Below are positions 20,780 to 37,100 of a DNA stretch of 64,000 bases, piece by piece. The position numbers and the translations under genes were made by a program. The notes beneath the pieces were generated by a model. The model made no database searches. It saw only the letters and a list, made by a program, of their open reading frames with translations, and was not told the DNA's origin. The stretch's first letter is position 1; each line of letters begins with the position of its first letter. Origin of the DNA: Thermoplasmatota archaeon (GTDB taxonomy: Archaea; Thermoplasmatota; Penumbrarchaeia; Penumbrarchaeales; Penumbrarchaeaceae); the NCBI GenBank assembly GCA_046483845.1, contig JAWOCK010000098.1, positions 655 through 64,654 of the forward strand, in the 5' to 3' direction.

Positions 20780-23700
20780 TCACTCGAAAACGGCACCGCA
20801 GTGCGGACAGATCGGAGCGGATACCGGTATCAAGGCCCCGCACTCGAAACATTCGGCGAGCTCCTCTTCTTCCTCCTCCACCGGAACCGGAGCCGCATCC
20901 TCGCCAGGAGCCTCCTCCTCGATCTCCTCGGAGCCCTCCTCTTCGAGTTCCTCGAGCTCTTCCTCCTCTTCTTCGAACTCTTCATCCTCCCGACCTTCTT
21001 TCTCCTCTTCCTCCGAAGGTCCCTCCTTCTGTAACGGTTCTACATCGGCCTTTACAGGTCTATGGCAGGCCGGGCACTCCGTGGCACCGGTCGGTATCAG
21101 CTCGCCGCACTCACATTCCAACTCATCCGAGAACTCGACACCGCAATGCGGGCATATATCCGCATCGAGCTGGACCAGGCCCCCACAGTTGGAACATTTT
21201 GCCATGTCCTTTGTCTTGTATTTCTTATACACGAAGTAGCCGATAGCACCACCGATGAGAAGCAGGACCAGTATGATGATCAATATCCACACCCATAGAC
21301 GGCTGGGTTCATCCCCTTCCTGGATCTGGACAATGACCGTCGCTTCATTGTTGTCCTTGTCGGATTCATAATAGCTATTCTCATCATCTATCTTCACCCT
21401 GAACAACTTGACATCACCCACAGAGCCTTCTGGTTCGACCCTGAAGGTGACAAGAACTTCTTGATATGGAAGAAGGTCTACGGTCCTCAGATAGCTCTCA
21501 CCTTCAGCAAGCGAGGCGGGTTCATCGAACTCAACCTGGAGATCATGAAAGGAGAAGTTGCCGTTGTTGGTGACCTTGAACGTAACTTCATACTCTTTGT
21601 CCTCTTTCATATCGAACTGCCCGGTCTCTATATTGTACACATCACTTTCCCTCAGAAGTTCGATGGATAGGTCGGGTGCCTCCATCACCTCCAATTGCAG
21701 GGTCAATACATTGTTCCCTTCATCGAACTCCCGTATACTGTTCTCGGGGTCGACCATTATCCTCAACATGTTCATCCCCAGATCCTTCAGGTTCCAGTGG
21801 CCCCTTATCACATCCGTTCCGTTGGTTTCGAGGAAAGGTATCCTGATTATCTTCTCCGTCCAGCTATCGGTATCATTATATGCCTTGAAAAGGACCGTCG
21901 TATTGCTGGCAGCCTTACCACCTATATTGGTCAGGTTCAGCTCCAGGGAGATATTCATACCTAGGTAGGCCATTGGTTCATATTCCAGATCGATGTCGAT
22001 ACCAGGATATCCGGTGGACAACATCAGAGAGCTGTTGGATAGTAAAAGCTCAGGAACATCCTGTATGTCAAATATTTCAACCTGATGGTGAATGCGGTTG
22101 TTGGAGGTGGTCTGCTCCTCCCCTTCCAGCAGGTCCACCTCAACCAGCAATGTCCTGATACCCTTGGGATAATCAGCGATCCAGGGCCTCTCGACGAACA
22201 TGCTGGACCTCCCGGGCAAGGTCCCTGCAAGGTAGGTCATTCCTATTCCCAGCGGGATCGGGTTGGGATCGTTCTCGAACTCCGCATTGAAGAACCTTAT
22301 CCTGAAGGTAGGGGCAGTGGTATCTCCCGTGTTCTCAACGGTTGTGTTTATGGTAAGACGGTTTCCCACTCCCACACTGTTCACCTCGAAATCACCCTGA
22401 TAGAGAGTGATGTTGGTGACCTCCAGGTCGGGCAGTGTCCGGACATACATCTTCCAGAACACCTTGTTGTTCTCTTCATCGCTCTCATCAATGGTATCGA
22501 CCAGGTCCAGGATGACATATATTTCATGATCACCACCGGTTGTGGGGGTCCATGTGACATTTGCCCATCTGAAACCCCCTGCCGGGACAATGTTGATGGA
22601 AACGGAGGGCTGTGTCTCCTTCCAGGAGATTATCTTTCCACCTTCCAGCGGATCTCCGTCGTAGAACCTTATGAAAACGTTCCTTGCAGGAGTTTCGCCG
22701 GAGTTCCTTACAGATGCACTGATGGTGACCTCTTCCCCGATATCAATATTGCGATCCGGTGAGAAATAGAGATCGTTCGTACCCATGTACAGATCAGGTT
22801 TGGAGATCACCCTGATATCGATGGATCGGAGATTGTTATCCTCGTCGGGTTCTTTTATGATATCCCGGGGGTCGGCAACTATGAACATGGTCCTGAACCC
22901 GCTTTCTTCCTCTGCCCTCCGGGATTCCCATGTTATGGAGATGTTCTTTTCCTGACCCGGTAGAAGATCAACATTCACTGTGCTGATGACATTCGTATCA
23001 GAGTCAAGCGCGAACTCCACCTTTGCATTATGAGCCATTGTCTTTCCTATGTTCTTTACAGTGGCCCAGAAGGTGGCGTTCTTGCCTTCTGTTATTACAC
23101 TGGGAGAGACACCAATGTTCGAAGTGAAGGTCAGATCCGGTGGGGTGTCAACCCTTATCGGGAAGATCACCTCGTTGTTCGCCTCGTTCTGTTCCCTTAC
23201 ATCATCATTTAAGTCAATTGCAACGATCAGTTCATGTACACCGGTCGGCGGTCCCGCATACCAGATGAACTCCAGTTCGATATCATCGCCAGGGGATAGC
23301 CCGGGTACCGAACGGTCAAGGTCTATCTTATTTTCCTCGGTCCTTTCCCCGTCATAAACGCTCACCATGAAAGCTCCTGCAGGCAGGTCTCCCGTGTTCT
23401 CTATGGTGAACGTCACCACCGCCGTGGTGTTCACCGTTACCGGGTCCGGTACATTGATGCCGAAGGAGTTCAGGACAAGCCCGATATCCGGAAGCGAAAG
23501 TACCTCTATGGTCCGGACATCGATCGAGTTTATGGGTGACCTGTCGTACTTGGATACCACGGATCCCACCACGTTCAATGTTCCAAGGGCCATGGGCGTC
23601 AAGTTCACGGTCTTCTCCACGGTCTCGCCGGGCGGTATATAATCGAACATCAAAAAGGAGCGGATCTCGCCTTCTCCTGAAGCATCGGTCCATGTCATGT

Positions 23701-26497
23701 TCACATAGAATGGGTTCTCTTCGGGGTCGAGCTCTCCCTCATTACTGACCAGTACATCTATCCGACCCGTGGTATTATAAGCCCATGTTATGGGTGGGAT
23801 ATCGAGCTCTATCGCATAATCGGGACCCAATCCTATGGTGTTGATCTGGTGATCGAGGTTGTCATCCTCATCGGTCTCCTTCACATCCCCGTTCACATCC
23901 GCCATAAGTGAAATATTGACCTCTCCCTCGGTGCAGACCCATGTAGCGTTGACAACATGAGAGGCACCCGGGGCAAGTTCAGGAACAGACCTCTCGACCA
24001 GCGGCTCTCCATCGATCATGATCGAGGCGGAGAACCGGTCCGAGGAGAACTGACCATCGTTCTTTACACTGCCCTTGAGCTCCACCGGGAACCCGTCTAT
24101 CAATGTGCCTTCGGTCCATATCATCTCGGGAACTATGTTGGGTCCGCCTGGCAGGACCACTACAGCATCGATGTTCGCACCTGATAGAACTGCAGCCAAA
24201 GGATCGGACCGGATACCCGAATATGAAGCATTGAACCTGTAATTACCGTGATAGGTCCTTCCGGTGCTCCTTATCTCTTCCTCCAGAAGCGAAAACCTCG
24301 CTGTGCCGTTATCACCAGTTGTATGGGAGGAAACATCGACCTTGAGGGGCCCCAGGACACGCTGAACGTACAATGATGCGCCTGCTATCGGATTCTCGAC
24401 GGAGTCCTGGACCTGGACATTTACCCACCAATATTTCTGTATCACCCCTGTACCGACAGCTTTCAACCATTTGGTCCTTCCATCGGGAAGTGAGCCGGAA
24501 AAGGTAACATTGGTGAGCGAAGCGGAACGGTCCACGTCCAGTACCGTATCGAAGATCGCATCCCGGGATGAGAACGCAACATTGTCCCAGTCCAGATCGC
24601 CGATATTTACTGGCCCCCCTCCGAGCTCGAGGTCGCAATCGGTCGCAAAGATATCCTCGGAGGTGATCCCGGCAGCGTCAACAGAAACATCGACATCAGT
24701 TCCGTAGAGGTTAAAGGACCCGTTCACCATCTCACCCTGTATGTCTATTATCCCGGTGTCCCTTGCTACTATCTGATCGAACTGCAGGCTGCCCCCGTCC
24801 ATTATCATCCGAGGAGCCGAATTTCCAATGAGATAGATGTAAAGGTCCTCTTCACCGTGGGAGGAAAGGGAGACATTGTTCAACTCCATCTTGCCTCCAT
24901 CCTCAATAAGTATGTATGCAGGTGAATCGTCCGTCAGGAAGGATACGGTCGTATCATTGATCGTGAGATGACCCCCGGACCTTATTATGAGATGACCGTC
25001 AAAAGCATAATACGAAGGATAGAACCTCCCATCTACGATAGCTGAGGTCCCGTTCAGGGTGGTGGAACTGCTGAGTGTAAGATCGACATCGGAGCCCGAG
25101 AAGAAAGAAGAGGAGGAGGGGACCATCACATATTCCTTGAATTCGAACGGACCTCCGAGGTCAGAGAAGGCATAGGTACTCTCGGCCGAGCCATCCAGTA
25201 TGGATGCGATAAGATCAACGGCCTCTCCCTGGTCAGGGACATTGGGATAGTTCTTGAACGATGTGTGTGAGGACAGGGTTTCCGTGACCTGGGTTACCTC
25301 GATCTTGAAATCCGGATATGAATCGGAGTTGGGCATGGTCGAGGGTGTTATCACATCGGTGATCACCGGGACGAAGCTCCAACCATCCTCATCCGTGCTG
25401 CTCCAATCAGAGGAGGTCCGGTCCATGAAATCCAATATATCGCCGGTCAGGTAGCTCGAAGTCAACTGTCTGTTTGTGCTGCCTTCGATCCTGTATATGT
25501 CGAGCACCTGGTCCTCCACAGGAATGCCTACCCCGTCGAACACCCGAGATGCTATCCATCTATAATAGATGGCCTTGGAGCCCGTGTTGCGGGTATGGAC
25601 AGCGGGGTAAGTACGATCGGCTGCCGACACATTGAAAGCAGCTCCAACCAGATGGGCCACTGCACCATTGGTTATCTTTAGCATGTTGTGCGAGCCGGTA
25701 GACCTGTTGGATTCGAAATCAATATCCAGGAAGGAATTTATCACAGTAACGTTGGTACCCGAACCATCCAGTGTTATGTTTCCAGCTATCCGACCGTCCC
25801 TTGAGGATGTTGTGAAGGAAAAGGTATCCCTTATCTCCGTATTTACTATCAGTCCCTTGGAACCTGAGAGATAGGTAAAGAGAGGGCCGTCATCATTGTA
25901 GTCCGCATCGTCCGTTGTACTGCCGTCACCGTCGATATCGTATTGAAGGTCATTGGTGTATTCCAGCTTCTTGAATATGGACCCGATGGAATCTATCCTG
26001 CCGCCATTTGTAGCCTGTATCTCACCGGGACCCTCTACCATCGAATTCTCGAAATAAAGCCTGCTTCCTGAGCCATCAACTCCCATATCTATCATGAAGT
26101 AAGGATGAAGCTGATCGGTCTGTGTAGTCACTATGGTATTCTTGAATTGGAGGTATCCACCATCCTGGACCCTGATCGAATAAATATGATCATCACCTCC
26201 ACCTATGACCCCGTCCAATCCGACATCCTGGGAAAGGGTGAGATTGCAGTTGGTAAAGGTGAGTGTGCTTCCAGAGCCGCTGACCGTTATATTGCCGTCC
26301 AAAATATAATCCACCCCGCTGAAGCTTCTTGAAGCGCCTCCTGTCACATTGACCGTACCTAGGGTGCTTGCACCCTCGGCAGGACCTTCCAAGGGGAAGA
26401 TCATGTAAAGACCGGAGAACAACATCATCATAGCTATTGGAGCAGCCATCCATTTTTTTGATCCAAAGAACCGTTTTCCTTCCATACGATCCACCAT
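20780..26497 (-). CDS. Giant (1905-aa) exported surface protein: right-handed beta-helix-like N-region, multiple CARDB-like repeats, C-terminal TM, poly-acidic linker and four cytoplasmic CxxC zinc-ribbon pairs
   Basis: Signal peptide (MAAPIAMMMLFSGLYMIFPLEGPAEG). N-region rich in NxT/S-containing beta-helix-like repeats (…TVSGSGSTLTFTNCNLTLS…). Repeated ~100-aa CARDB-like modules (…VTFTIENTGDLPAGAFMVSVYDG…, …ATFWATVKNIGKTMAHNAKVEF…, …TISASVRNSGETPARNVFIRFYDG…). TM (LWVWILIIILVLLLIGGAIGYFVY), then CSNCGG…CPHCG, CECG…CPACH, E-rich stretch and CFECG…CPHCG. Confidence 0.75.
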   Translation of the reverse strand: MVDRMEGKRFFGSKKWMAAPIAMMMLFSGLYMIFPLEGPAEGASTLGTVNVTGGASRSFSGVDYILDGNITVSGSGSTLTFTNCNLTLSQDVGLDGVIGGGDDHIYSIRVQDGGYLQFKNTIVTTQTDQLHPYFMIDMGVDGSGSRLYFENSMVEGPGEIQATNGGRIDSIGSIFKKLEYTNDLQYDIDGDGSTTDDADYNDDGPLFTYLSGSKGLIVNTEIRDTFSFTTSSRDGRIAGNITLDGSGTNVTVINSFLDIDFESNRSTGSHNMLKITNGAVAHLVGAAFNVSAADRTYPAVHTRNTGSKAIYYRWIASRVFDGVGIPVEDQVLDIYRIEGSTNRQLTSSYLTGDILDFMDRTSSDWSSTDEDGWSFVPVITDVITPSTMPNSDSYPDFKIEVTQVTETLSSHTSFKNYPNVPDQGEAVDLIASILDGSAESTYAFSDLGGPFEFKEYVMVPSSSSFFSGSDVDLTLSSSTTLNGTSAIVDGRFYPSYYAFDGHLIIRSGGHLTINDTTVSFLTDDSPAYILIEDGGKMELNNVSLSSHGEEDLYIYLIGNSAPRMIMDGGSLQFDQIVARDTGIIDIQGEMVNGSFNLYGTDVDVSVDAAGITSEDIFATDCDLELGGGPVNIGDLDWDNVAFSSRDAIFDTVLDVDRSASLTNVTFSGSLPDGRTKWLKAVGTGVIQKYWWVNVQVQDSVENPIAGASLYVQRVLGPLKVDVSSHTTGDNGTARFSLLEEEIRSTGRTYHGNYRFNASYSGIRSDPLAAVLSGANIDAVVVLPGGPNIVPEMIWTEGTLIDGFPVELKGSVKNDGQFSSDRFSASIMIDGEPLVERSVPELAPGASHVVNATWVCTEGEVNISLMADVNGDVKETDEDDNLDHQINTIGLGPDYAIELDIPPITWAYNTTGRIDVLVSNEGELDPEENPFYVNMTWTDASGEGEIRSFLMFDYIPPGETVEKTVNLTPMALGTLNVVGSVVSKYDRSPINSIDVRTIEVLSLPDIGLVLNSFGINVPDPVTVNTTAVVTFTIENTGDLPAGAFMVSVYDGERTEENKIDLDRSVPGLSPGDDIELEFIWYAGPPTGVHELIVAIDLNDDVREQNEANNEVIFPIRVDTPPDLTFTSNIGVSPSVITEGKNATFWATVKNIGKTMAHNAKVEFALDSDTNVISTVNVDLLPGQEKNISITWESRRAEEESGFRTMFIVADPRDIIKEPDEDNNLRSIDIRVISKPDLYMGTNDLYFSPDRNIDIGEEVTISASVRNSGETPARNVFIRFYDGDPLEGGKIISWKETQPSVSINIVPAGGFRWANVTWTPTTGGDHEIYVILDLVDTIDESDEENNKVFWKMYVRTLPDLEVTNITLYQGDFEVNSVGVGNRLTINTTVENTGDTTAPTFRIRFFNAEFENDPNPIPLGIGMTYLAGTLPGRSSMFVERPWIADYPKGIRTLLVEVDLLEGEEQTTSNNRIHHQVEIFDIQDVPELLLSNSSLMLSTGYPGIDIDLEYEPMAYLGMNISLELNLTNIGGKAASNTTVLFKAYNDTDSWTEKIIRIPFLETNGTDVIRGHWNLKDLGMNMLRIMVDPENSIREFDEGNNVLTLQLEVMEAPDLSIELLRESDVYNIETGQFDMKEDKEYEVTFKVTNNGNFSFHDLQVEFDEPASLAEGESYLRTVDLLPYQEVLVTFRVEPEGSVGDVKLFRVKIDDENSYYESDKDNNEATVIVQIQEGDEPSRLWVWILIIILVLLLIGGAIGYFVYKKYKTKDMAKCSNCGGLVQLDADICPHCGVEFSDELECECGELIPTGATECPACHRPVKADVEPLQKEGPSEEEEKEGREDEEFEEEEEELEELEEEGSEEIEEEAPGEDAAPVPVEEEEEELAECFECGALIPVSAPICPHCGAVFE

Positions 26498-26802: not shown

Positions 26803-29800
26803 TTGCGTTGGTACAAGTTAAATGTCCGTCCATATGGAATGACATCCATCGACAGGAACAAATGTATTGTATGCCTGGCACTTATCTTCACATTTCTAAC
26901 AACATCCACATTCCCGATATCAGGTCAAGGAGAGAATTTGGGAACACTTTCCATGCCGGAGAAAGGATCTCTTCACATCCGCATCAACGAAGTATATCCG
27001 GACCCGGATACGGACACCAACGGCGATGGGGATGTGGACCAGCTAGATGAATTCGTTGAGCTCTACAACCCTTCCTCGGTGGATGTCAACATATCAGGTT
27101 GGACAATTTCTGACAACGGAGGATCTTACACCATCGGTTCCGGTTCGGTCTCGGCGGGGGGATTCTTCCTGATATGGAGAGAGGTGTCAGGTCTGAGGTT
27201 GGGCAGCTCGGACCATATAGATCTCACAGCTTCCAACAGCACATCTATGGACATTCTCAGCTGGGTCCAGATAGAAAGGGGAAGGTCCATGCAGAGGTCT
27301 CCTGACGGTGCTGAGAGGACCCGGTCCGTCAAAGACCATACGCCGGGTTGGGAGAACCTTCCACCACCCAGAATTATCATGAACGAGGTGATGGTCGACC
27401 CAGAGGGTGCCAATACGGGGGCCCAGTGGATCGAGCTCTTCAATCCGGGACATTCAGAGGACCTGGAGGGATATTGTATTGATAACGGAGATGGTGCATT
27501 CATGCTGCTTCCCGAGGTCCGGATACCATCCGAAGAGAGGTGCCTTGTGTTCACGGGGGAGCCGCCTCCGGGTGCGGTGGAGATGGGCATCCCGTTCTGT
27601 GTTATCTCTCTTGGCAGGGCTTTCTACGTGAACGGGGATGACCTTTGTCTCACCGATCCTGACGGATACTTACTGGACTATGTGGCCTGGGGTAACTCCA
27701 CACACGTGGGTTATCCTTCTGGCATCTTCCATGGAGAACCATGGGACGGGGGTTACTATGATAATGAGATGGAAAGGTTCGTCCAGGGCGAGAACATGAA
27801 CCCAAAACCGCATGAAGGGAGATCCCTCAAGCGCTCCGAGGACGCCTTTGATACGAATTCCACCTTGGATTGGAAAGTGGACGAGGGAGGGATGGGTAGC
27901 ACCATGGGTTACGATAACTCACTTGACCCATCGGTGCTGGTCTCTCTCCCCTCGGATGTGATATGTGTGGACGGCAGGGTGTGGAGCACCGTGAACTTCA
28001 GCATGACCAATACGGGAAACATGCATGATGAACTGACCATTGATCTGGAGACCACATCCACCAGCTGGATCATCGAGCCGTCCAACATCACTATCCCTGA
28101 CCAGTATCCCGGGAAAGTGGTGAACAGTTCGTTCTCTGTCCTCGGTCCCGAACTTGGCGATAACAGGTCTTGTCTTGTGGAAATGAACATGGTATGGTCC
28201 TCTTTGTCCTTCATCGAAATAAAACAGAGTGTTCAAGTGATGATCCCCGGACCTGACCTAGGGATATCCGACTTACAGGTCGAGGTGAAGAACGGGGACC
28301 TCATGTCGATACCGGAGGGATCCTTTGTGGACATATCCTTCATCGCAGAGGGAGGAGGTGAGATCAACCCTGGCAACACAACGGTCATCGTGGAGATGAG
28401 AAATATTGACACAGGAAGCATCTCCACCATCTTCAACCGGCAATTATCTGATATGCGGACCGGATCAAGAAGGAAAATGGACCTCCGGCTTGATACGATC
28501 GATCTTTCAGGGAACCACACACTTTACTTCTCCATAGATCCGGACAATTTGATAAAAGAGGTGGATGAGAACAATAACCATGAAGTTGTGGACATAAGGA
28601 TCGAGCCCTCCACAGTCCCGCAGGGGCAGGAGAGCTTGAAGATAACAAAGGTCCTGTGGAACTGCACTCAAGAATCGACCTTCGTCGAGATAAGAAACCC
28701 ATGCCCAACCGGGATCCCCATCGATGGAATGAAGCTGTCCGACGGAACCGTTTTCGCCTCCTTCGAGGATGATGTGACGATCGAGCCAGGAGAGAGGATA
28801 TATCTCCTCTGGGGAGCAAAAGCACAGGAACGCGTGCCTGAGCAAGGAAGACATATATGGGTCAGTGGAGGAAGTGCAAGGCAGGAAAGGATGATAGCAG
28901 AGAACGGGGTTCCCGACCCTTTCTCAACGGGCAGGATACAGCTCCTTTCACGGTACAGACATCTCATTGATGATGTCCCGCTGAGACCACCCCTTGACAA
29001 AGGGGAAGAGACAACATGGGGAACCATATACCACAGGAGGGTGGATTCTCGGGGAATGCCGGTGGATACCAATACATCTTCGGACTGGTATGTATACAAG
29101 AATTCGGCCTGGATAGGCGGCATCTTGCCGGCCCCTTCCCCATCAGGAGGACCCGGAGAGCTGATCATACTTCGAACGGACCGGGAAGGGGTCGACGTAT
29201 CCGGTCTTGCACTCTTCCTTGGAAACAGGTGTGCGGTGATACCAAACGGGACCAGAACCGATGAGAACGGCCTTCTGGTCATATCCTCGGACCCTGTGTT
29301 CTTCCGGGATGCACAAGGTAGGGACCCAGACCTTGTAACGGGTCACGATACGGATGGACCGGATGGTGATATCATCCCCGGGTGCCGGGTTCCCTCCTTC
29401 AGCGAGATGCTCCTTCCGAACTCGGGAGGGAACCTGGTCCTTAAGGACCGGTCGAACATCCCGATCGATCGGGTCAGTTGGGGGAGCGTGACCGAACCTC
29501 ACCTGGAAAAAGCGGAGAGAGACGTGCTCTACTGGAAGGACAACGAAAGCAGTGATTGGAGAATACTGGCATACGGGAAGGAAAAGATATACGCATTGGA
29601 CCACGCCAGAGAGGCGGAGAATGTCAGCATTCATTTTTTCGATGACAGACTTGACCTGATGAGATGGATGATGCAAGAAGAACGTCTCACGCTCCACACG
29701 GACCTTCTGGCGGATGATGATATTTATTCTCTTCTTTGTTTGTACATGGACGAGGGAAATGAAGTTGTCATCAACTATCATGTTCCACCCTGGGAGGAAC

Positions 29801-32800
29801 TTGATGAAAGATGGGGGCTTTATGCAAACAGCAGTTCCATGGCATCCATTGCATGGGGCCTGTGGAAAAAGGGAGCAGATGTTCGCTACCAGGATGGAGA
29901 TTGCAGTATCGGAGGAATGAGCATTGCCTTCGCTAGAACGAGAATGGCATTATTTCCCGGTCCCTTCCTGGAGAGTGAGCAAGTGAAGGTGGAGCCTCTT
30001 GCAGGTATCGATCTTCAGGGTAGGTCCATTGATGAAGGACACATCCAGGAGATCGCATCTTCACTGGATCTTGATGATGCGGAAAGTCATCTGGACCTCT
30101 TGGACCCAGTTCCGATCGATATATCTCCTCTTGACCTCGGGCCCCCGGGAGAGGGTTCCTTTATCCGGGAGTGCTCAATGATGGCCAATGACTGGTTGGG
30201 CCCCATGGACCATCTAAAGGGTCACATGTCCATGGTTCTGGGGGAAGGCCCGTGGGATATGGTCGATATTTTGGACGTTCTGCGCTGGGAGGATGGAGGC
30301 AGGATCGTATTAAATCCGAGGGATATGAGCGTCGTATCGAGGGATTGCATACCGTTTCTCAAGGAAGTACGATCAAGAACGGAAAAGGGGGAGCACCTTT
30401 ACTGGATGGACGGTCTAAAGGATGACATGTTCCTGAGGGCTGCCTCTATACAAGAGGTGCTCGAGGGAGAAAGCAGTAACTCCGGAATGTATATGGGAGA
30501 CACTACCTGGGCGTATACCCTGTTCGGAGGATACGGGACCTCGGATTCCTCCAGCTCGATATGGATACCTTCCTTTGGCGAGGACAGGATAGGGACCAGG
30601 CTCGATCTCGACATGGGATTGAACGGTCCTCTCGGAGACCTTTTCGGGATGACAACACCCTTCCCATGGTCCTTGATCGCCCCTGAGACCAACAGTTCCT
30701 CCGTTGGAGCACGCCACCAATTGAGGATAGAGGAGGTATATTACAACACTTACCTTGTGGACGATCCCGATGAGTACGTTGCGGTGAAGAACACCGGCCA
30801 CAGTGAACTGGACCTCTCCGGTTATATCTTATCCGACGATGAGGGGCTCGGGATAGCCTCTGATGGTATGGTCGTGATCGAGAATTCAACGGTGGGCCCA
30901 GGGGAGCTTTTTTTCATATCAATGAATGCAGGGGCTTTCCTGGGTCAGAACGGTTTCCCACCGGATTCTTCTTGGGACAGGTCCGGGAGCTCTATCTGTA
31001 CCAGTGGTTTCTTCAGACTCTCCAATTCGAAGGATACCGTCTGCCTCAGGGACCCGCTGGGTTCAGTGGTGGACGTTGTGGCATACGGAAGCGCAATATG
31101 GAAAGAGGGACAATGGAGCCATTACGGCCCCCGGGACTGGACAGGACCCGCGGTGGACGATGTTGGTTGGGGAAGGGTTCTCCACAGATGCCCGGGGCCC
31201 CAAGGTCAGCAGGCAGAAGATACGGATTCCGCCCTGGATTGGTCGGATATCAGGGATAGGTATCCGGGGCAATCCAGGTTAACCCCCTTTTCGGAACGCA
31301 CCATGGATCGGCTTGAGTACGGCGTATGTCCTGATTCAAGTTCAAGTATAATGGACGATCTCATCTCCGGGGCAGGTTCGACCCTTCTTGTGAACGTTTA
31401 CGAACTTACCTCTCACTGGATCGTATCCAGGATGATCGGAGCAGTGGACAGGGGAGTCGATGTCAGGATCATACTGGAAGGGAACCCTGTGGGAGGAATC
31501 CGACAGTTGGAGAAGAGGTCTGTGGCCAGATTGCTGGATAAAGGCATCGATGTCCGGTTGATGTACACGGACCCGTCGAGGAACATAAGGGACAGATACC
31601 GATACGATCACGCAAAGTACATTGTCGCAGATGGCAACAAGGTACTGGTATCCACCGATAATTTCAAGGATTCCTCATTCCCGCCGCTGGACACAGCATC
31701 CGGAGCTACCACGAGAGGTTGGGTCGTTTCCATGGAATCAAAGGGGCTGGCGAACGATCTCACCGTGGTCTTCGAACAAGATTTCCATGGTCCGGATATG
31801 TTGGATGCGCGGACGCTCATTGAAGAATGGGGTGACATACGGGAAATGGCTAATATTGAAAGGAGCGGCAGACACGTGGACATCTTCAGACCAGGGAAGG
31901 CAAAAGCAGGTTCATCCGCCCGTGTTATGGTCTCCCCTGATCATATCTCGCTCAGGTCCAACAGTCTCATGAAGGCAATAGAGCTGGCCGAAAAGGAGAT
32001 AGCCCTGGAACTGCTGGATATGGACCCTTTCTATCTGGATGATAAGTGGGACCCGGATACTTTCACAGGGGAATTGTCCAATCCTTACATGATAGCACTG
32101 CTGGATGCGGCGGAAAGGGGAGTCGATATCAGGGTCCTTCTGGACGGCACGGACTTCGACGGGGACCTGGAGCCCGACAATCAGTTCGCCGCGGACATAC
32201 TGATGGAAGCTGCGGAGACCAGGGGCGTTTCTGAGCATCTCCAGGTGCAACTCAATCCCAGAACGAGATTCCACGACCGTGGGAATATCGAACTGATCCA
32301 CGCCAAGGGAGCAATAATCGATTCCGATACCACCTGGATCTCTTCCTACAACTGGAATCCCGTTTCAGGAACAGAGAACCGAGAGGTGGGGGTGCTGATA
32401 TCCTCCCGGGAATGTGCCGGATATTTCAGAGGGGTCTTCGACTTCGATTGGGATGGCACCCTGCAGGACGAGGTTGAGGCTAGAAAGGTCTGGGCCTACA
32501 GCCAAGAATTGGAAGATGGGGGTTGGGAGGTGGTCTGCGAGTTCGATATAACCTGCTCCGCCGATGCACCCACTGAATTCTTACTCTATGCAAGGAGTGG
32601 GAAGGATCTGCCTATGCAACCCATCGGCTCCAGCGGCCCCATCCATAACAGTACCTCGGTCATCTGCATCAAAGGGACACTGGAGAACATAACGGAGGTG
32701 ATCGATCTCCGCCTCCATGCCAGAAAGGACAGCAGAGAGCTCGAGATACTTGAGTTCGATGTTCCTCTGGGTATCAACGAAGATACCTTCGTTCTAAAAG

Positions 32801-32928
32801 GGCTGCTCGGATCACCGCTAATACCCTTGGCCATCATACTTCTCATCTCCTTGGGCACCGCTTTAATGAGAGATGTGGTCAGAGCCGTCAGGAACAAAAA
32901 GAGGAATAATGCAGGTATAGAGGAATAG
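26803..32928 (+). CDS. Giant (about 2030-aa) exported protein with three lamin-tail domains (LTD), a CARDB-like region and a C-terminal tandem-HKD phospholipase D-fold (nuclease/PLD-like) domain, then TM anchor
   Basis: A likely true start is MTSIDRN at about 26839; the track ORF begins with TTG. Signal peptide, then the LTD signature repeated three times: LHIRINEVYPDPDTD…DEFVELYNPSSVDVNISGWTISD, IIMNEVMVDPEG…QWIELFNPGHSEDLEGYCID, LRIEEVYYNTYLVDDPDEYVAVKNTGHSELDLSGYILSDD. Two HKD motifs: HAKYIVADGNKVLVSTDNF and HAKGAIIDSDTTWISSYNWN. C-terminal TM (PLIPLAIILLISLGTALM). Confidence 0.75.
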   Translation: MRWYKLNVRPYGMTSIDRNKCIVCLALIFTFLTTSTFPISGQGENLGTLSMPEKGSLHIRINEVYPDPDTDTNGDGDVDQLDEFVELYNPSSVDVNISGWTISDNGGSYTIGSGSVSAGGFFLIWREVSGLRLGSSDHIDLTASNSTSMDILSWVQIERGRSMQRSPDGAERTRSVKDHTPGWENLPPPRIIMNEVMVDPEGANTGAQWIELFNPGHSEDLEGYCIDNGDGAFMLLPEVRIPSEERCLVFTGEPPPGAVEMGIPFCVISLGRAFYVNGDDLCLTDPDGYLLDYVAWGNSTHVGYPSGIFHGEPWDGGYYDNEMERFVQGENMNPKPHEGRSLKRSEDAFDTNSTLDWKVDEGGMGSTMGYDNSLDPSVLVSLPSDVICVDGRVWSTVNFSMTNTGNMHDELTIDLETTSTSWIIEPSNITIPDQYPGKVVNSSFSVLGPELGDNRSCLVEMNMVWSSLSFIEIKQSVQVMIPGPDLGISDLQVEVKNGDLMSIPEGSFVDISFIAEGGGEINPGNTTVIVEMRNIDTGSISTIFNRQLSDMRTGSRRKMDLRLDTIDLSGNHTLYFSIDPDNLIKEVDENNNHEVVDIRIEPSTVPQGQESLKITKVLWNCTQESTFVEIRNPCPTGIPIDGMKLSDGTVFASFEDDVTIEPGERIYLLWGAKAQERVPEQGRHIWVSGGSARQERMIAENGVPDPFSTGRIQLLSRYRHLIDDVPLRPPLDKGEETTWGTIYHRRVDSRGMPVDTNTSSDWYVYKNSAWIGGILPAPSPSGGPGELIILRTDREGVDVSGLALFLGNRCAVIPNGTRTDENGLLVISSDPVFFRDAQGRDPDLVTGHDTDGPDGDIIPGCRVPSFSEMLLPNSGGNLVLKDRSNIPIDRVSWGSVTEPHLEKAERDVLYWKDNESSDWRILAYGKEKIYALDHAREAENVSIHFFDDRLDLMRWMMQEERLTLHTDLLADDDIYSLLCLYMDEGNEVVINYHVPPWEELDERWGLYANSSSMASIAWGLWKKGADVRYQDGDCSIGGMSIAFARTRMALFPGPFLESEQVKVEPLAGIDLQGRSIDEGHIQEIASSLDLDDAESHLDLLDPVPIDISPLDLGPPGEGSFIRECSMMANDWLGPMDHLKGHMSMVLGEGPWDMVDILDVLRWEDGGRIVLNPRDMSVVSRDCIPFLKEVRSRTEKGEHLYWMDGLKDDMFLRAASIQEVLEGESSNSGMYMGDTTWAYTLFGGYGTSDSSSSIWIPSFGEDRIGTRLDLDMGLNGPLGDLFGMTTPFPWSLIAPETNSSSVGARHQLRIEEVYYNTYLVDDPDEYVAVKNTGHSELDLSGYILSDDEGLGIASDGMVVIENSTVGPGELFFISMNAGAFLGQNGFPPDSSWDRSGSSICTSGFFRLSNSKDTVCLRDPLGSVVDVVAYGSAIWKEGQWSHYGPRDWTGPAVDDVGWGRVLHRCPGPQGQQAEDTDSALDWSDIRDRYPGQSRLTPFSERTMDRLEYGVCPDSSSSIMDDLISGAGSTLLVNVYELTSHWIVSRMIGAVDRGVDVRIILEGNPVGGIRQLEKRSVARLLDKGIDVRLMYTDPSRNIRDRYRYDHAKYIVADGNKVLVSTDNFKDSSFPPLDTASGATTRGWVVSMESKGLANDLTVVFEQDFHGPDMLDARTLIEEWGDIREMANIERSGRHVDIFRPGKAKAGSSARVMVSPDHISLRSNSLMKAIELAEKEIALELLDMDPFYLDDKWDPDTFTGELSNPYMIALLDAAERGVDIRVLLDGTDFDGDLEPDNQFAADILMEAAETRGVSEHLQVQLNPRTRFHDRGNIELIHAKGAIIDSDTTWISSYNWNPVSGTENREVGVLISSRECAGYFRGVFDFDWDGTLQDEVEARKVWAYSQELEDGGWEVVCEFDITCSADAPTEFLLYARSGKDLPMQPIGSSGPIHNSTSVICIKGTLENITEVIDLRLHARKDSRELEILEFDVPLGINEDTFVLKGLLGSPLIPLAIILLISLGTALMRDVVRAVRNKKRNNAGIEE

Positions 32929-33762: not shown

Positions 33763-34134
33763 TCAATCGAGCTCCACTGTCTCGATCTCCCGGGGGGCCT
33801 TATCCTTCCCGATCCGATCCAGCAGAGCCCTTGTTAGCCGTATCCTATCGTAGTTTATCACAATATAGAGAATGAAGAACGGTATCGAAGCGAGTGCAAG
33901 GAGAACGGGTACCATCCCCCAATCGATGTAACTGCCACTGTTCTTACCATCCAGCAATCTGACGAACAGCTCCCCCAATGCCCAAAGGACCAGGAATATA
34001 CCCGCTGTCATGAATACCCCTGAAAAGAGAGATCTGAAGAAAAGCACCAGCTTGGGCCTCTTCTTCATTTGCTTCCCCCTGCTTTTCCTTGACCGGCTCG
34101 ATCCGGGTCTCTTCGACATGTTAGTTCCTTCCAA
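33763..34134 (-). CDS. Small membrane protein with highly basic N-terminus (hypothetical)
   Basis: MSKRPGSSRSRKSRGKQMKKRPK, then two predicted TM helices. No recognisable family. Confidence 0.4.
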   Translation of the reverse strand: MEGTNMSKRPGSSRSRKSRGKQMKKRPKLVLFFRSLFSGVFMTAGIFLVLWALGELFVRLLDGKNSGSYIDWGMVPVLLALASIPFFILYIVINYDRIRLTRALLDRIGKDKAPREIETVELD

Positions 34135-34175: not shown

Positions 34176-37100
34176 TCAATACCCTCGAAAACCCATCTCA
34201 CTATCTATCTCGGAGCGATCATTGAACGCTCCATGGGGTCCATCTGGGCTGTTCTCCTGTTCCGGAGGGTGCTCATTTTCCTTTTTCTTCTTATTCCTGA
34301 TGAAGATCATCAAGGCTGCTGCAAGAAGGAGGACCGATATGGCTGCTGCCGTGATCAAGATGAAAAGCCGCCCGCCCTCCCCACTGTAATGCGAGGACGT
34401 TTCGGGCTCTACTATGTCGAAGCTCAACCGGTCGGACCCATTGATACCTCTGCCCAGTTCATCCCGGATATCCAGGACCATGATATATCTGCCAGGCTCC
34501 AGATCATCTTCCAGAAGGACATCGAAACGCCTGTTCTCCGGGTCCCACCGGACCTGAAGATCTATCCGGGAACCGTTCTCATCAATGAGGTGGACCGAAG
34601 AGTTGATCGAAATGGTACCTGAGATCCTTATATCAAGCGACCGCGGCACATCAATTTTCCCGAGGTACCCCATCTCATCCTGGAATGAGGAGGAACCATC
34701 CACGGAGACTATACTTACAGGCTCGAAGACAACGAATTCAAGCTCGGTCGGGACCATCCTCTCACCTGTCGCATCCGTCAACCCGTTCGATATGAACACG
34801 TAATAGACAACTCCGTCATCCAGTTCATCCTCCGGATCAATGACCAATGTCCTGGGGTCTGACAGGGAGATCTCCGCAGGGATATCGACCCCTGATGCCG
34901 ACTGCAAGCGGATGTTCGCGAATATGGTGTCCGGATCGATCTCTTCATTGAAAATGAACAAGAGATCGCTTTCCTCTGTCATGTTACGGGGGTCATCTCT
35001 GAAATTGACATGAACCAGCTCCGGCGGCGTTCCGTCGGTCACAACGTTTATCACGACAATGTCATGATCGACGTTCCCACTGGCATCGACGACCTTGAAC
35101 TGTATCCGATGCTCTCCAAGCTCGTGGAAGGTAATGGAGACCTCTTTTCCAAAGTAAAGGTTACCGGACCTCTTTTCCACCCAGGTAAAATTGGCATCCA
35201 GAGGGAACATGGGATCGTTGTCCTTGGTCTCACCCGCGGAAAAGGAAATGGTCCCTCCCCTTATCACTTCCCTGTCCTCACCAGCAATTACATCGGGGGG
35301 TGTTACGTCCTGGACCAGGATATTGAAACTTGTTGAATCCGAGCAGCCGCCCGTATCGGTCACCGTGAGTTCGCACAGATATGACCCGGGAGTGAAGAAG
35401 GTCCATATTACCTCACTGCCTGTAAGGACCTTCTCATCCGGTCCCATGATGCTCCAGGTGAAGCTTCCAAGAGCCATTATTTCCGGATCATTATCCTCTA
35501 AATATCCATGACTGAGAACGATCTCCTCATCCTCCTTGACCACAAGGTCTTCCATTTCCGCCAGCTGCGGGGGGTCGGTATCGGTGACCTGAAAGTGGGT
35601 GATATTGAAGTCATGGTTCCGGGCGGAGTCGATGACATGAAGGGACACCTCATATGTGCCCGGTATGTCGATATTGAGGTCCACCACCTTCCCGTAGAGC
35701 ACCACCTCACCTTTACGGGTCATTATCGACCATGTGTAATTTATCAGACCGGATAGTGGTGTATCCGGGCCAATGAACCTTGATGAGGAGGCGTCAAGAA
35801 AGAATGGGGCCGAAGTGGTAGCATTGGACATCGATATCCTGGCCTCGGGCTCGTACGGATCGTAAACGACGTATACCTCCTCTTCCAGGGTCGAAGGCCC
35901 GTTACCCAGCCGGTCATAGAAGAGGACCCGGAAGGTGTTCCCACCTTCCTCCAGGGTCAGGAATGTCTCGAAGGATCCATCCTCATCGGCTCTGCAGCTA
36001 ATGAACTCGGATCCATCTTTCATCACCTTGACAACCGCGTAAGGCTCCGATAGGCCGGTCAACCTGTAGACGGACACGTTCAAGACGGAAACCAGCTCGG
36101 ATGAGACAGAAAAGTAATTCGGCGGAGTGTTATCGACGATGAAGGATACGGTACGATCGGTGACATTGACGTTCTCCGCCTCATCCTCCACTCTTGCCCT
36201 GACCAGTATGATGCTGCCCTCGGTAAGCGGTGAGGAAAGTTGCGTTGTATCCCAATCATAAGGATCCTGAGGAGTGTCATCCCGTCCTACCAAGGCCCAA
36301 TCCGTATCCGGGTCCCCATCGTTGTTATGGTCAAGGGCTCCATGGAACAGAACCTCCCTTGCATCCGGATCGGTTGTGTAGTTGATCTCATACACCTTGT
36401 TCACAAAGTGGGGCCCTCCGTAAGCTTCGAAGCTGAACCGTGGTGGTGTCTCATCCCTGGGGACCGATCGGACCCATTCGGTGGGTTCCGAAAGGAAACC
36501 CAGTATGTTCAATGATCTGATCCTGTAAAAATATCTCCTGCCGTCGATGAGGCCGTCATCCACCCAATACGTCCTGTTGTCCGGCGTGGTGTGAACCAAC
36601 TTTATATCATCAGGCTCTCCACTGCCCGCAGATGATTCATTTGCGCGGTAGATCATGTACGACATGAGATTTACGTCACCAGGACTCTCCCATGAAAGCT
36701 TGATGCTGTTCCCGATGAGAACGGGTTCTGCAGAGAGATCCAGTGGACTCCTGGGTATGTTAGTATTTATTATCAACGGGCTTGCAGACAGTTCATGAAC
36801 AGGCGGCAGGTAACTCCGCTTTATCGTGCCCCTGATGGTATAATTGCCCACGACCAGGTTCGGAACGGTGAACTCTCCTGTATATATTCCATCATTTGCC
36901 ATGACATCAGGTGCAATACCATCATCCTCGGCGGCGATACCCTGTCTGGAACCTAGACCTACCACATCGAATTCCGCTTTCCAACCGGCGGTCCCGTTGA
37001 TGCTGACGATAACCCTGTCCTGATAGGTCAGGGTTATTCCGTTACTATCATGGGAGACATCGGATATCTCTGCCGGAATATAGGCCATGATCGAACTCGA

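Follow-up and report, generated by a model that had tools for sequence, protein, structure and literature searches.

The window, a 64,000-nucleotide stretch of DNA from an uncultured Thermoplasmatota archaeon, carries on its forward strand an open reading frame (26803..32928, +) of 2,041 codons with a TTG start, for which the program-made ORF list gives identical coordinates. The identical protein at NCBI also begins at TTG 26803 (2,041 aa), and the current annotation of this giant gene is only "lamin tail domain-containing protein". The ORF is real, as 2,041 codons together with 11 full-length homologues at 32–50% identity are far beyond chance. Translation more probably starts at ATG 26839, which gives a protein of 2,029 aa; its N-terminus, MTSIDRNK-CIVCLALIFTFLTT, is typically signal-like, and residues are numbered here with this Met as residue 1. 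The neighbouring genes encode Top1, PurP, a CARDB giant, PCNA, an S8 protease, NifU, a cysteine desulfurase, PAN and MetRS.

Hydropathy analysis revealed that the only hydrophobic segments of the giant protein are the signal-like N-terminus and one C-terminal transmembrane (TM) segment at residues 1988–2010, which is followed by a basic tail. The protein contains 20 N-x-S/T sequons, compared with 11 ± 3 in shuffled sequences, or about twice the density of its cytoplasmic neighbours. Based on the hydropathy profile and the sequon enrichment, it is predicted to be a type I, C-terminally anchored cell-surface protein with ~1,950 residues outside the cell, in agreement with the original prediction of an exported, membrane-tethered protein. 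The following features were mapped:

26803..32928, +, whole ORF including the stop codon (program-made ORF list, NCBI identical protein)
26839..26928, +, signal-peptide-like N-terminus, residues 1–30 (basic n-region, hydrophobic core 8–29 by hydropathy)
26971..27267, +, lamin tail domain (LTD) 1, residues 45–143 (Pfam PF00932, 60.6 bits, E-value 2.3e-16)
27364..27693, +, LTD2, residues 176–285 (Pfam PF00932, 31.1 bits, E-value 3.2e-7; hhalign against LTD1, 97.5%)
27889..28248, +, residues 351–470, without a family match, four N-x-S/T sequons
28276..28593, +, CARDB-like domain, approximately residues 480–585 (Pfam PF07705, C-terminal profile half alone, at 528–581)
28627..29133, +, LTD3, residues 597–765 (partial Pfam match at 597–676, E-value 4e-4; hhalign against LTD5, 97.3%)
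29161..29487, +, LTD4, approximately residues 775–883 (hhalign against LTD5, 98.0%, E-value 1.8e-13; missed by Pfam)
29584..30708, +, pseudo-PLD module, residues 916–1290 (tandem PLD fold without HKD motifs)
30709..31089, +, LTD5, residues 1291–1417 (Pfam PF00932, 48.6 bits, E-value 1.2e-12)
31357..31779, +, active PLDc_2 domain 1, residues 1507–1647 (Pfam PF13091, 48.5 bits; model pLDDT 88.8)
31609..31662, +, HKD motif 1, H1591-A-K1593-YIVA-D1598-GNKVLVSTD-N1608 (H, K, D and N invariant)
32083..32451, +, active PLDc_2 domain 2, residues 1749–1871 (Pfam PF13091, 61.0 bits)
32299..32352, +, HKD motif 2, H1821-A-K1823-GAII-D1828-SDTTWISSY-N1838 (H, K, D and N invariant)
32479..32793, +, membrane-proximal region, residues 1881–1985 (poorly conserved, without a Pfam match)
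32800..32868, +, C-terminal TM anchor, residues 1988–2010 (hydropathy >1.8; equivalent segment in 19/19 family members)
32869..32925, +, short basic cytoplasmic tail (terminal dipeptide -EE, family-invariant)

Over the whole protein, the Pfam LTD profile matches four stretches (E-value, 7.7e-43; 145.8 bits against a gathering threshold of 34.3). LTD1 and LTD5 pass this threshold individually, whereas LTD2 and LTD3 (21.1 bits) fall below it alone; the identity of LTD2, LTD3 and LTD4 was confirmed by hhalign at 97–98%. Three LTDs had been predicted, and the strings quoted for them correspond to LTD1, LTD2 and LTD5, but Pfam and hhalign reveal five in all. The CARDB domain, also predicted, scores just above the Pfam cutoff of 22.7 bits over the whole protein (23.2 bits; E-value, 8.4e-5) and reaches 30.1 bits on the isolated segment, but the alignment covers just the C-terminal half of the profile (positions 51–98 of 101). 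The PLDc_2 profile matches two stretches (E-value, 6.2e-29; 100.9 bits against a gathering threshold of 27).

The proposed joining of LTDs to a complete tandem-HKD unit was borne out, but a second tandem PLD-fold module had been missed. It lies between LTD4 and LTD5, spans ~375 residues and is catalytically dead. Its N-terminal half has no counterpart of the segment "RDRYRYDHAKY", and a search for ancestral intermediates found HKD motifs in this module in 0 of 19 family members. Set against the invariant active module, the dead one shows what loss of constraint looks like.

The two HKD motifs quoted in the original prediction are present at residue 1591 (HAKYIVADGNKVLVSTDNF) and residue 1821 (HAKGAIIDSDTTWISSYNWN). 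Both fit the pattern HxK(x)4D(x)6G/S-S/T-x-N, of which the PLD (HKD) superfamily carries two per catalytic unit. All eight H/K/D/N residues are invariant in 11 orthologues, 48 wider relatives and 19 family members, so that the loss of these residues in homologues, named beforehand as a point of refutation, was not observed in any homologue examined. The structural model of the module is confident (pLDDT, 88.8; pTM, 0.89) and predicts a bilobal alpha/beta pseudo-dimer uniting both motifs; the other point of refutation, a predicted structure in which the HKD pairs are not placed to form a PLD active site, was therefore not borne out either. The module is the best-conserved portion of the giant protein, strongly acidic (net charge −27, pI 4.6), and lies ~100 residues from the membrane anchor.

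The closest fold matches of the model belong to the compact tandem-HKD class: Serratia SpPLD, the PLD3/PLD4 5′ exonucleases and vaccinia F13. For PLD3/4, synthesis of the lipid BMP has been reported as well, and F13 has been described as an envelope phospholipase. In profile comparison with PDB sequences, SpPLD ranks best (2e-26), and the next-nearest solved relatives are mostly nucleases, namely Nuc (8e-15), Zucchini (5e-13), PLD3 (8e-10), poxvirus nicking-joining enzyme (2e-9), NucT (3e-9) and PLD4 (3e-6); the lipid enzymes PssA (2e-5) and PLD1 (9e-3) rank last. Membership of the cardiolipin synthases was rejected, since the NCBIfam models ClsB (30.7 bits vs 281) and bac_cardiolipin (23 vs 290) score far below their cutoffs; the ClsA/ClsB topology, with N-terminal TM helices and catalysis on the synthesis side, is not found in a protein whose bulk is predicted to be extracellular.

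Only a single Thermoplasmatota clade of ~17–19 members has the giant form, and the locus that encodes it is a strictly syntenic housekeeping region conserved across ~17 genomes. Two other giant surface proteins are syntenic with it, one with six CARDB domains and Zn ribbons and the other an S8 subtilase. The giant protein is fast-evolving. No operon partner, mobile-element signs or defence genes were found in the window context, and readings of the locus as a defence island or as a product of horizontal transfer were rejected, because it is strictly syntenic, of housekeeping character and free of such signs and genes.

The LTD-PLD-PLD core alone is found as an exported protein of ~555–760 aa in many archaea and some bacteria, and the cassette is extracytoplasmic in all lineages. 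LTD5 is the LTD belonging to this ancestral core, as alignments of the short relatives to the giant protein begin near residue 1290; distal to the cassette lie the dead PLD-PLD copy, four more LTDs and the CARDB-like domain. Residues ~1290–1880 have true homologues in the short proteins found in Methanomicrobiales, ANME-1, Thermoplasmata and Firmicutes, which show 28–37% identity over >90% of the module and carry no annotation beyond "PLD-like domain-containing protein". These proteins share the order signal peptide, LTD and tandem HKD, followed by a TM segment (archaea) or a second LTD (Firmicutes), but do not have the N-terminal extension of ~1,290 residues, and both the pseudo-PLD module and the terminal -EE are missing from them. 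The Firmicutes cassette, with a signal peptide and no TM segment, appears to be freely secreted. When all ORFs located up to 5 kb on either side of 62 short-core homologues were clustered, the recurrent neighbours were housekeeping genes particular to each lineage (one for an amino-acid-kinase-family protein, others identified by eye alone), and the single cluster spanning bacteria and archaea resembled a response-regulator receiver domain, judged by eye only. This clustering revealed no linkage to nucleotide or lipid metabolism, and no genes for nucleoside/nucleotide uptake or salvage were linked in either the window context or the short-core neighbourhoods. A literature search returned no paper on lamin tail domain and phospholipase D in archaea, nor on a Thermoplasmatota lamin tail.

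Among known systems, ExeM/Xds of Shewanella and Vibrio consists of a signal peptide, an LTD, an OB domain, an EEP nuclease and a C-terminal anchor, and deletion of the LTD lowers its activity (PMC6085458); haloarchaeal Hvo_1477 (Haloferax) joins an LTD to a thermonuclease (PMC5118699), and an LTD nuclease of 1,049 aa is found in DNA-degrading sediment bacteria (PMC8289736). ExeM/Xds and Hvo_1477 share with the giant protein the design of signal peptide, LTD and phosphodiesterase domain, and act on DNA near the cell surface; the TM anchor of ExeM is likewise followed by a basic stretch. However, the metal-dependent EEP (with OB) and thermonuclease domains are unrelated to the PLD fold, and Pfam detects neither EEP nor OB in the giant protein, the catalytic domain of which is PLDc_2. 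These nucleases also have one LTD in 871 aa, compared with five in 2,029 aa.

PLD3/PLD4, endolysosomal 5′–3′ ssDNA/ssRNA exonucleases (PDB 8v08, 8q1x and others), have a luminal domain of close fold, but share only 14–18% identity with the active module, and their profile matches are weaker than those of Nuc and Zucchini; judged by sequence, the homology is remote, not orthologous. They are type II proteins with an N-terminal anchor, whereas the giant protein is predicted to be type I with an N-terminus resembling a cleavable signal, and they have neither LTDs nor a pseudo-PLD module. The PLD3/4 active site is described as basic (PMC10690185), while the active module here is acidic overall. 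SpPLD of Serratia plymuthica (PDB 7E0M) is a stand-alone bacterial protein of 391 aa without LTDs or anchor. Its authors remark on nuclease-like loops but assign no substrate (PMC8004604), and this likeness therefore leaves the function of the giant protein unsettled. The endonucleases Nuc (Salmonella pKM101) and NucT (H. pylori) carry a single HKD per chain and are homodimers of ~155 aa, whereas here the two halves are fused and accompanied by large accessory regions. Non-catalytic single PLD lobes occur in the unrelated cytoplasmic proteins FAM83 (DUF1669), TrmB (sugar-binding domain) and MITD1; the giant protein, in contrast, has an entire dead tandem module on the same chain as a live one.

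Within the PLD superfamily, the substrate cannot be deduced from neighbours in fold or profile. Nevertheless, a nucleic-acid substrate is favoured because of the nearest structural and profile neighbours and the LTD-nuclease precedents, in line with the nucleic-acid scavenging suggested originally. We give about even chances to a surface-tethered, metal-independent phosphodiesterase that cuts extracellular DNA/RNA for nutrient scavenging. The acidic charge of the active module, set against the basic PLD3/4 site, and the finding of no linked genes for nucleoside/nucleotide uptake or salvage count against this reading. The two HKD halves would together form one active site, in which one His would attack the phosphorus to give a phospho-histidine and the other His would serve as general acid, by the metal-independent mechanism of the superfamily. 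The cell-bound nuclease would free nucleotides and oligonucleotides near the membrane for P, N and C scavenging, while the LTD array and pseudo-PLD module may act as a glycosylated stalk with non-catalytic elements for substrate binding or capture.

The position of the catalytic module close to the anchor would also suit a lipid substrate, and a surface-tethered phospholipase D or transphosphatidylase acting on phospholipid head groups, likewise foreseen by the original prediction, is possible but rather unlikely. Such an enzyme might attack the lipids of other cells, vesicles or detritus, for phosphate/head-group scavenging or against competitors, or might exchange head groups in the cell's own ether-lipid outer leaflet in a cardiolipin-synthase-like reaction. 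This reading is less favoured by the last rank of lipid enzymes in the profile comparison, and the apparently free secretion of the Firmicutes core suggests that the substrate lies outside, and speaks against a role in remodelling the membrane of the producing cell. A phosphodiesterase on some other extracellular or envelope polymer, with the LTDs and CARDB as carbohydrate- or envelope-binding modules, appears doubtful: phosphodiester-linked glycans, teichoic-acid-like polymers, polyphosphate and protein-nucleic-acid adducts are candidates, but nothing specific points to them, and the nuclease-type relatives are far closer than PPK or Tdp1.

A surface protein or adhesin with a purely structural role, in which the live-looking PLD module is no longer enzymatic, would fit a giant, fast-evolving, glycosylation-rich protein with many Ig-like domains and one PLD module already dead; it is nonetheless improbable, given that the active module is the best conserved and its catalytic residues are all invariant down to 30% identity. 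The least credible reading is an anti-phage or anti-competitor defence nuclease akin to DISARM DrmC. DrmC models are indeed the best NCBIfam and PADLOC matches (77.9 bits; E-value, 2e-17), but the score is below the NCBIfam cutoff of 133, and the single-HKD DrmC model matches each half on its own, a likeness generic to the domain; the DrmC/DISARM identity was rejected on these grounds. No DrmA, DrmB or methylase genes lie near this housekeeping locus, and injected phage DNA would be out of reach, since the catalytic domain is predicted to be extracellular. The anti-phage role proposed earlier is thus not upheld.

A more elaborate form of the nuclease proposal, which we consider unlikely, is a "capture-and-cut" enzyme that arose by LTD-PLD-PLD duplication. 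The distal copy would have lost catalysis and would bind nucleic acid (or another phosphodiester), feeding the live copy. The giant protein, the giant with six CARDB domains and Zn ribbons, and the S8 subtilase would then form a conserved extracellular digestion apparatus of this sediment-dwelling Thermoplasmatota clade, and the wider LTD-PLD-PLD family would be a prokaryotic functional counterpart of the membrane-tethered PLD3/PLD4 exonucleases.

Extracellular nucleic-acid turnover accounts for a large flux of P, N and C in sediments, and few of its archaeal players are known (PMC8289736). If the family has nuclease activity, a metal-independent class with the PLD fold would join the few known extracellular DNA/RNA degraders, and the gene would provide a specific marker for such turnover in uncultured benthic Thermoplasmatota, methanogens, ANME-1 and some Firmicutes. 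It would also give prokaryotic LTD arrays their first functional context and offer a natural case of a live/dead PLD pair within one chain. A lipid enzyme would be unusual for archaea, as a phospholipid-modifying activity that faces outwards. Short-core homologues are present in cultured organisms, in which the question is therefore open to testing.

The LTD/PLD giant is encoded by one ORF (26803..32928, + strand) of 2,041 codons when counted from TTG in the ORF listing of the window, and the protein is 2,029 aa long if translation starts at an in-frame ATG at 26839. This ATG, from which residues are numbered here, may be the true start, since it yields a more conventional signal peptide than TTG 26803. 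The domain families are already known, and the identical NCBI protein, which begins at TTG 26803 (2,041 aa), is deposited under the generic name 'lamin tail domain-containing protein [Thermoplasmatota archaeon]'. Hydropathy analysis revealed an N-terminus (MTSIDRNK-CIVCLALIFTFLTTSTFPISG) that is basic and then hydrophobic, which is the layout of a signal peptide, and a sole further strongly hydrophobic stretch at residues 1988–2010. As RDVVRAVRNKKRNN directly follows the latter, anchoring at the C-terminus, with the basic tail in the cytoplasm, is predicted. The protein contains 20 N-x-S/T sequons compared to 11 ± 3 in shuffled sequences, a density about twice that of its cytoplasmic neighbours. 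This enrichment, the C-terminal anchor and the resemblance of the N-terminus to a signal peptide together strongly support an extracytoplasmic location.

All 19 of the 19 giant-family members (~2,000-aa orthologues; P0001–P0011, P0140–P0149) finish in the dipeptide -EE, whatever sequence precedes it. In the LTD/PLD giant, these are the last two codons (window 32920–32925), at the extreme end of the short cytoplasmic tail; the same ending occurs in only 3 of the 78 ORFs in the window that are 150 aa or longer and is absent from the short methanogen relatives. The terminal -EE may represent a cytoplasmic recognition or sorting motif. The long antisense ORFs inside the gene (window 27126–27590, 28668–29282 and 29143–29781, all on the − strand) look like non-coding frame shadows, not genes, and have matches in related loci only where the main reading frame is shadowed.

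The domain order was determined by a segment-wise Pfam scan and by comparison of sub-profiles of the orthologue alignment (hhalign). In the whole protein, Pfam detects the lamin-tail domain (LTD; E-value, 7.7e-43; four stretches) and PLDc_2 (E-value, 6.2e-29; two stretches), while the CARDB match is marginal and partial. All of the strings quoted in the original prediction are found in the translation, and its two HKD motifs, at residues 1591 and 1821, conform to the canonical HxK(x)4D pattern. The quoted LTD strings are likewise present, but the count of three LTDs had to be raised to five on the basis of Pfam and hhalign.

Domain order of the LTD/PLD giant (+ strand; residues, feature, evidence)
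1–30, signal peptide (hydropathy)
45–143, LTD1 (Pfam)
176–285, LTD2 (Pfam, hhalign)
351–470, region without family match
~480–585, CARDB-like (Pfam, partial)
597–765, LTD3 (hhalign 97%)
~775–883, LTD4 (hhalign 98%; missed by Pfam)
916–1290, Pfam-blank block (pseudo-module)
1291–1417, LTD5 (Pfam)
1507–1647, PLDc_2 domain 1 (Pfam)
1749–1871, PLDc_2 domain 2 (Pfam)
1881–1985, region without family match
1988–2010, TM anchor (hydropathy)
2011–2029, tail, with -EE at its end

The active module, the tandem PLDc_2 unit, is more strongly conserved than any other part of the protein in the alignment of 11 full-length orthologues (32–50% identity), in which H1591, K1593, D1598, N1608, H1821, K1823, D1828 and N1838 are invariant. 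The same eight residues are invariant in a 48-sequence alignment reaching down to 30% identity, as well as in 19 giant-family members. Neither of the refuting conditions named in the original prediction, absence of the His/Lys/Asp residues from homologues or HKD halves not placed to form a site, applies. Judging from these residues, the module has a conserved and apparently competent PLD-superfamily active site. HKD enzymes cleave or transfer phosphodiesters via a phospho-histidine intermediate and without metal ions; given the conserved site, metal-free phosphodiester cleavage or transfer would be the chemistry of the giant.

The block at residues 916–1290 is a second tandem PLD-fold module and the least conserved part of the protein in the 11-orthologue alignment. 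No His or Lys is invariant in it across 10 orthologues, and no H-x-K-x4-D/E motif was found in it in 19 giant-family members. When its N-half was aligned to the active N-half (profile alignment, 86% probability), the segment with RDRYRYDHAKY was absent. The pseudo-module is therefore a predicted pseudo-enzyme. Among 1.84 billion cluster representatives searched exhaustively by profile, only 18 proteins contain it, most of them ~2,000 aa long with the module in the same position, the others being shorter or fragmentary. Hypothetically, the pseudo-module might capture substrate, and the LTD array might serve as a stalk, or as an envelope or substrate tether.

Residues ~1290–1880 (LTD5 and the active module) have hundreds of relatives at 28–37% identity. 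These short-core relatives, exported LTD-PLD-PLD proteins, are found in Methanomicrobiales (~555 aa), in ANME-1, Thermoplasmata, Methanomassiliicoccales and Aenigmatarchaeota (680–890 aa), and in Paenibacillus, Tumebacillus and Thermoactinomycetaceae (600–770 aa). Among 62 relatives, 47 have a hydrophobic signal at the N-terminus, and 56 contain two or more HKD motifs. The archaeal relatives have a TM anchor at the C-terminal end. The Firmicute relatives listed (Paenibacillus, Tumebacillus, Croceifilum; L026, L030, L033, L035) have a signal peptide, no C-terminal TM and a C-terminal region that closes with ...DW.V..PNPK(K/Q) and by eye resembles an LTD end; on these grounds, they appear to be secreted, not tethered. 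Cultured organisms with the core cassette include Methanoculleus nereidis YWC-01 (L075), Tumebacillus avium AR23208 (L030) and Paenibacillus alkalitolerans (L026). In the simplest history, the ancestor would have been an exported LTD-PLD-PLD cassette, which would have been duplicated internally in one Thermoplasmatota clade; the distal duplicate would then have become catalytically inactive, with additional LTD and Ig-like domains being acquired.

Full-length ~2,000-aa orthologues were found only in Thermoplasmatota MAGs, including the Guaymas 'ex4484_6' genome (L012), and the locus is rigidly syntenic across the giant-carrying genomes. The conserved order is Top1, HAD, PurP, giant CARDB x6/Zn-ribbon (−), LTD/PLD giant (+), PCNA, small ORF, giant S8 subtilase (−), NifU, cysteine desulfurase, HTH_10, PAN and MetRS. 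PCNA, the gene downstream of the LTD/PLD giant, is consistent with an archaeal host. Between genomes, the housekeeping neighbours share 60–88% identity and the LTD/PLD giant 32–50%. This synteny and divergence mark the gene as a chromosomal, vertically inherited, fast-evolving surface-protein gene. A mobile-element reading was rejected because of the rigid housekeeping synteny.

Large surface proteins and a small ORF of the window
13064–15661 (+), 865-aa Big_9/cadherin-like protein, hydrophobic segment before the acidic stretch
20780–26497 (−), CARDB x6 protein ending in double zinc ribbons, transcribed divergently from the LTD/PLD gene with ~300 bp between the two
26803–32928 (+), LTD/PLD giant
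33763–34134 (−), 123-aa ORF with PCNA on one side and the S8 giant on the other, conserved in 16 related loci (27–59% identity), no Pfam match
34176–39533 (−), S8 subtilase with PKD and Big domains

The three giant exported proteins around PCNA (20780–26497, 26803–32928 and 34176–39533) keep their synteny in at least 10 genomes and may be inherited together as an extracellular toolkit for digestion or for the envelope. The proteins at 13064–15661 and 20780–26497 both terminate in zinc-ribbon motifs after a highly acidic stretch; exported proteins with such a C-terminal zinc ribbon represent a recurring architecture.

With regard to the substrate of the active module, the chances are about even that it is nucleic acid and that the giant acts as a cell-bound nuclease. 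Against PDB sequences, the family profile best matches SpPLD (E-value, 2e-26), followed by Nuc (8e-15), Zucchini (5e-13), PLD3 (8e-10), the poxvirus nicking-joining enzyme (2e-9), NucT (3e-9), F13 (2e-8), PLD4 (3e-6), PssA (2e-5) and PLD1 (9e-3), a ranking that was counted in favour of nucleic acid. So were the nuclease-like loops pointed out by the authors of SpPLD, the substrate of which was never established (PMC8004604), and the repeated fusion of LTDs to nucleases and other phosphoesterases that are extracellular and membrane-associated: ExeM/Xds is an LTD-fused extracellular nuclease whose in vitro activity falls on LTD deletion (PMC6085458), LTD fusions also occur in Hvo_1477 and haloarchaeal ComA (PMC5118699), and sediment DNA degraders have a nuclease with an LTD (PMC8289736). 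The apparent free secretion of the Firmicutes homologues argues for an external substrate.

On the other hand, the active module is strongly acidic (net −27) and is the domain nearest the membrane, both of which count against, or are neutral to, a nucleic-acid substrate, and no salvage or transport genes linked to the giant or the short-core homologues were found in the neighbourhoods examined. The substrate cannot be read off from the PLD-fold neighbours; among them, F13 is described as a phospholipase, and PLD3/4 are also reported as BMP synthases. A phospholipid-directed enzyme is a distinctly less probable reading than the nuclease, and action on another phosphodiester polymer is improbable. 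Least credible are a purely structural protein and a role in defence, which the original prediction had included among its examples; the locus is no defence element, being rigidly syntenic with housekeeping neighbours.

In comparison with known systems, the giant would work like a membrane-tethered extracytoplasmic PLD-family phosphodiesterase, and its best functional analogues are PLD3/PLD4, in fold and non-cytoplasmic location, and ExeM, in the logic of its architecture. Membership in the PLD3/4 family was rejected (14–18% identity, weaker profile matches than to Nuc, opposite anchor polarity), as were cardiolipin synthase (equivalog scores ~10x under the cutoff, wrong topology), DrmC (score under the cutoff, partner genes absent, domain extracellular) and the ExeM/Xds type (no EEP or OB domains in the giant). 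The giant belongs to the PLD superfamily and to a widespread, uncharacterised LTD-PLD-PLD exported family, in which the giant form is clade-restricted and carries an internal dead duplicate. In the literature searched, there is no description of this family as a unit, or of the giant form, in which five LTDs are combined with two tandem PLD modules, one live and one dead. The LTD/PLD giant does not amount to a categorically new system but is a solid candidate archaeal extracellular nuclease.

The short LTD-PLD-PLD genes of Thermoplasmata have as neighbours the genes of a presenilin-type signal-peptide peptidase (PF06550) and of a rhomboid protease (PF01694) at L040, L041, L043, L046, L047, L052, L053, L056, L064, L069 and L077 (for example, L047:3707-4555 and L056:4669-5511), a setting reminiscent of the rhombosortase processing that has been proposed for ExeM. 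The anchored enzyme could be freed by proteolysis, or the flanks could be mere lineage synteny. A representative rhomboid protease has Cys-rich CPKCG/CKRCG C-terminal motifs with the look of a zinc ribbon.
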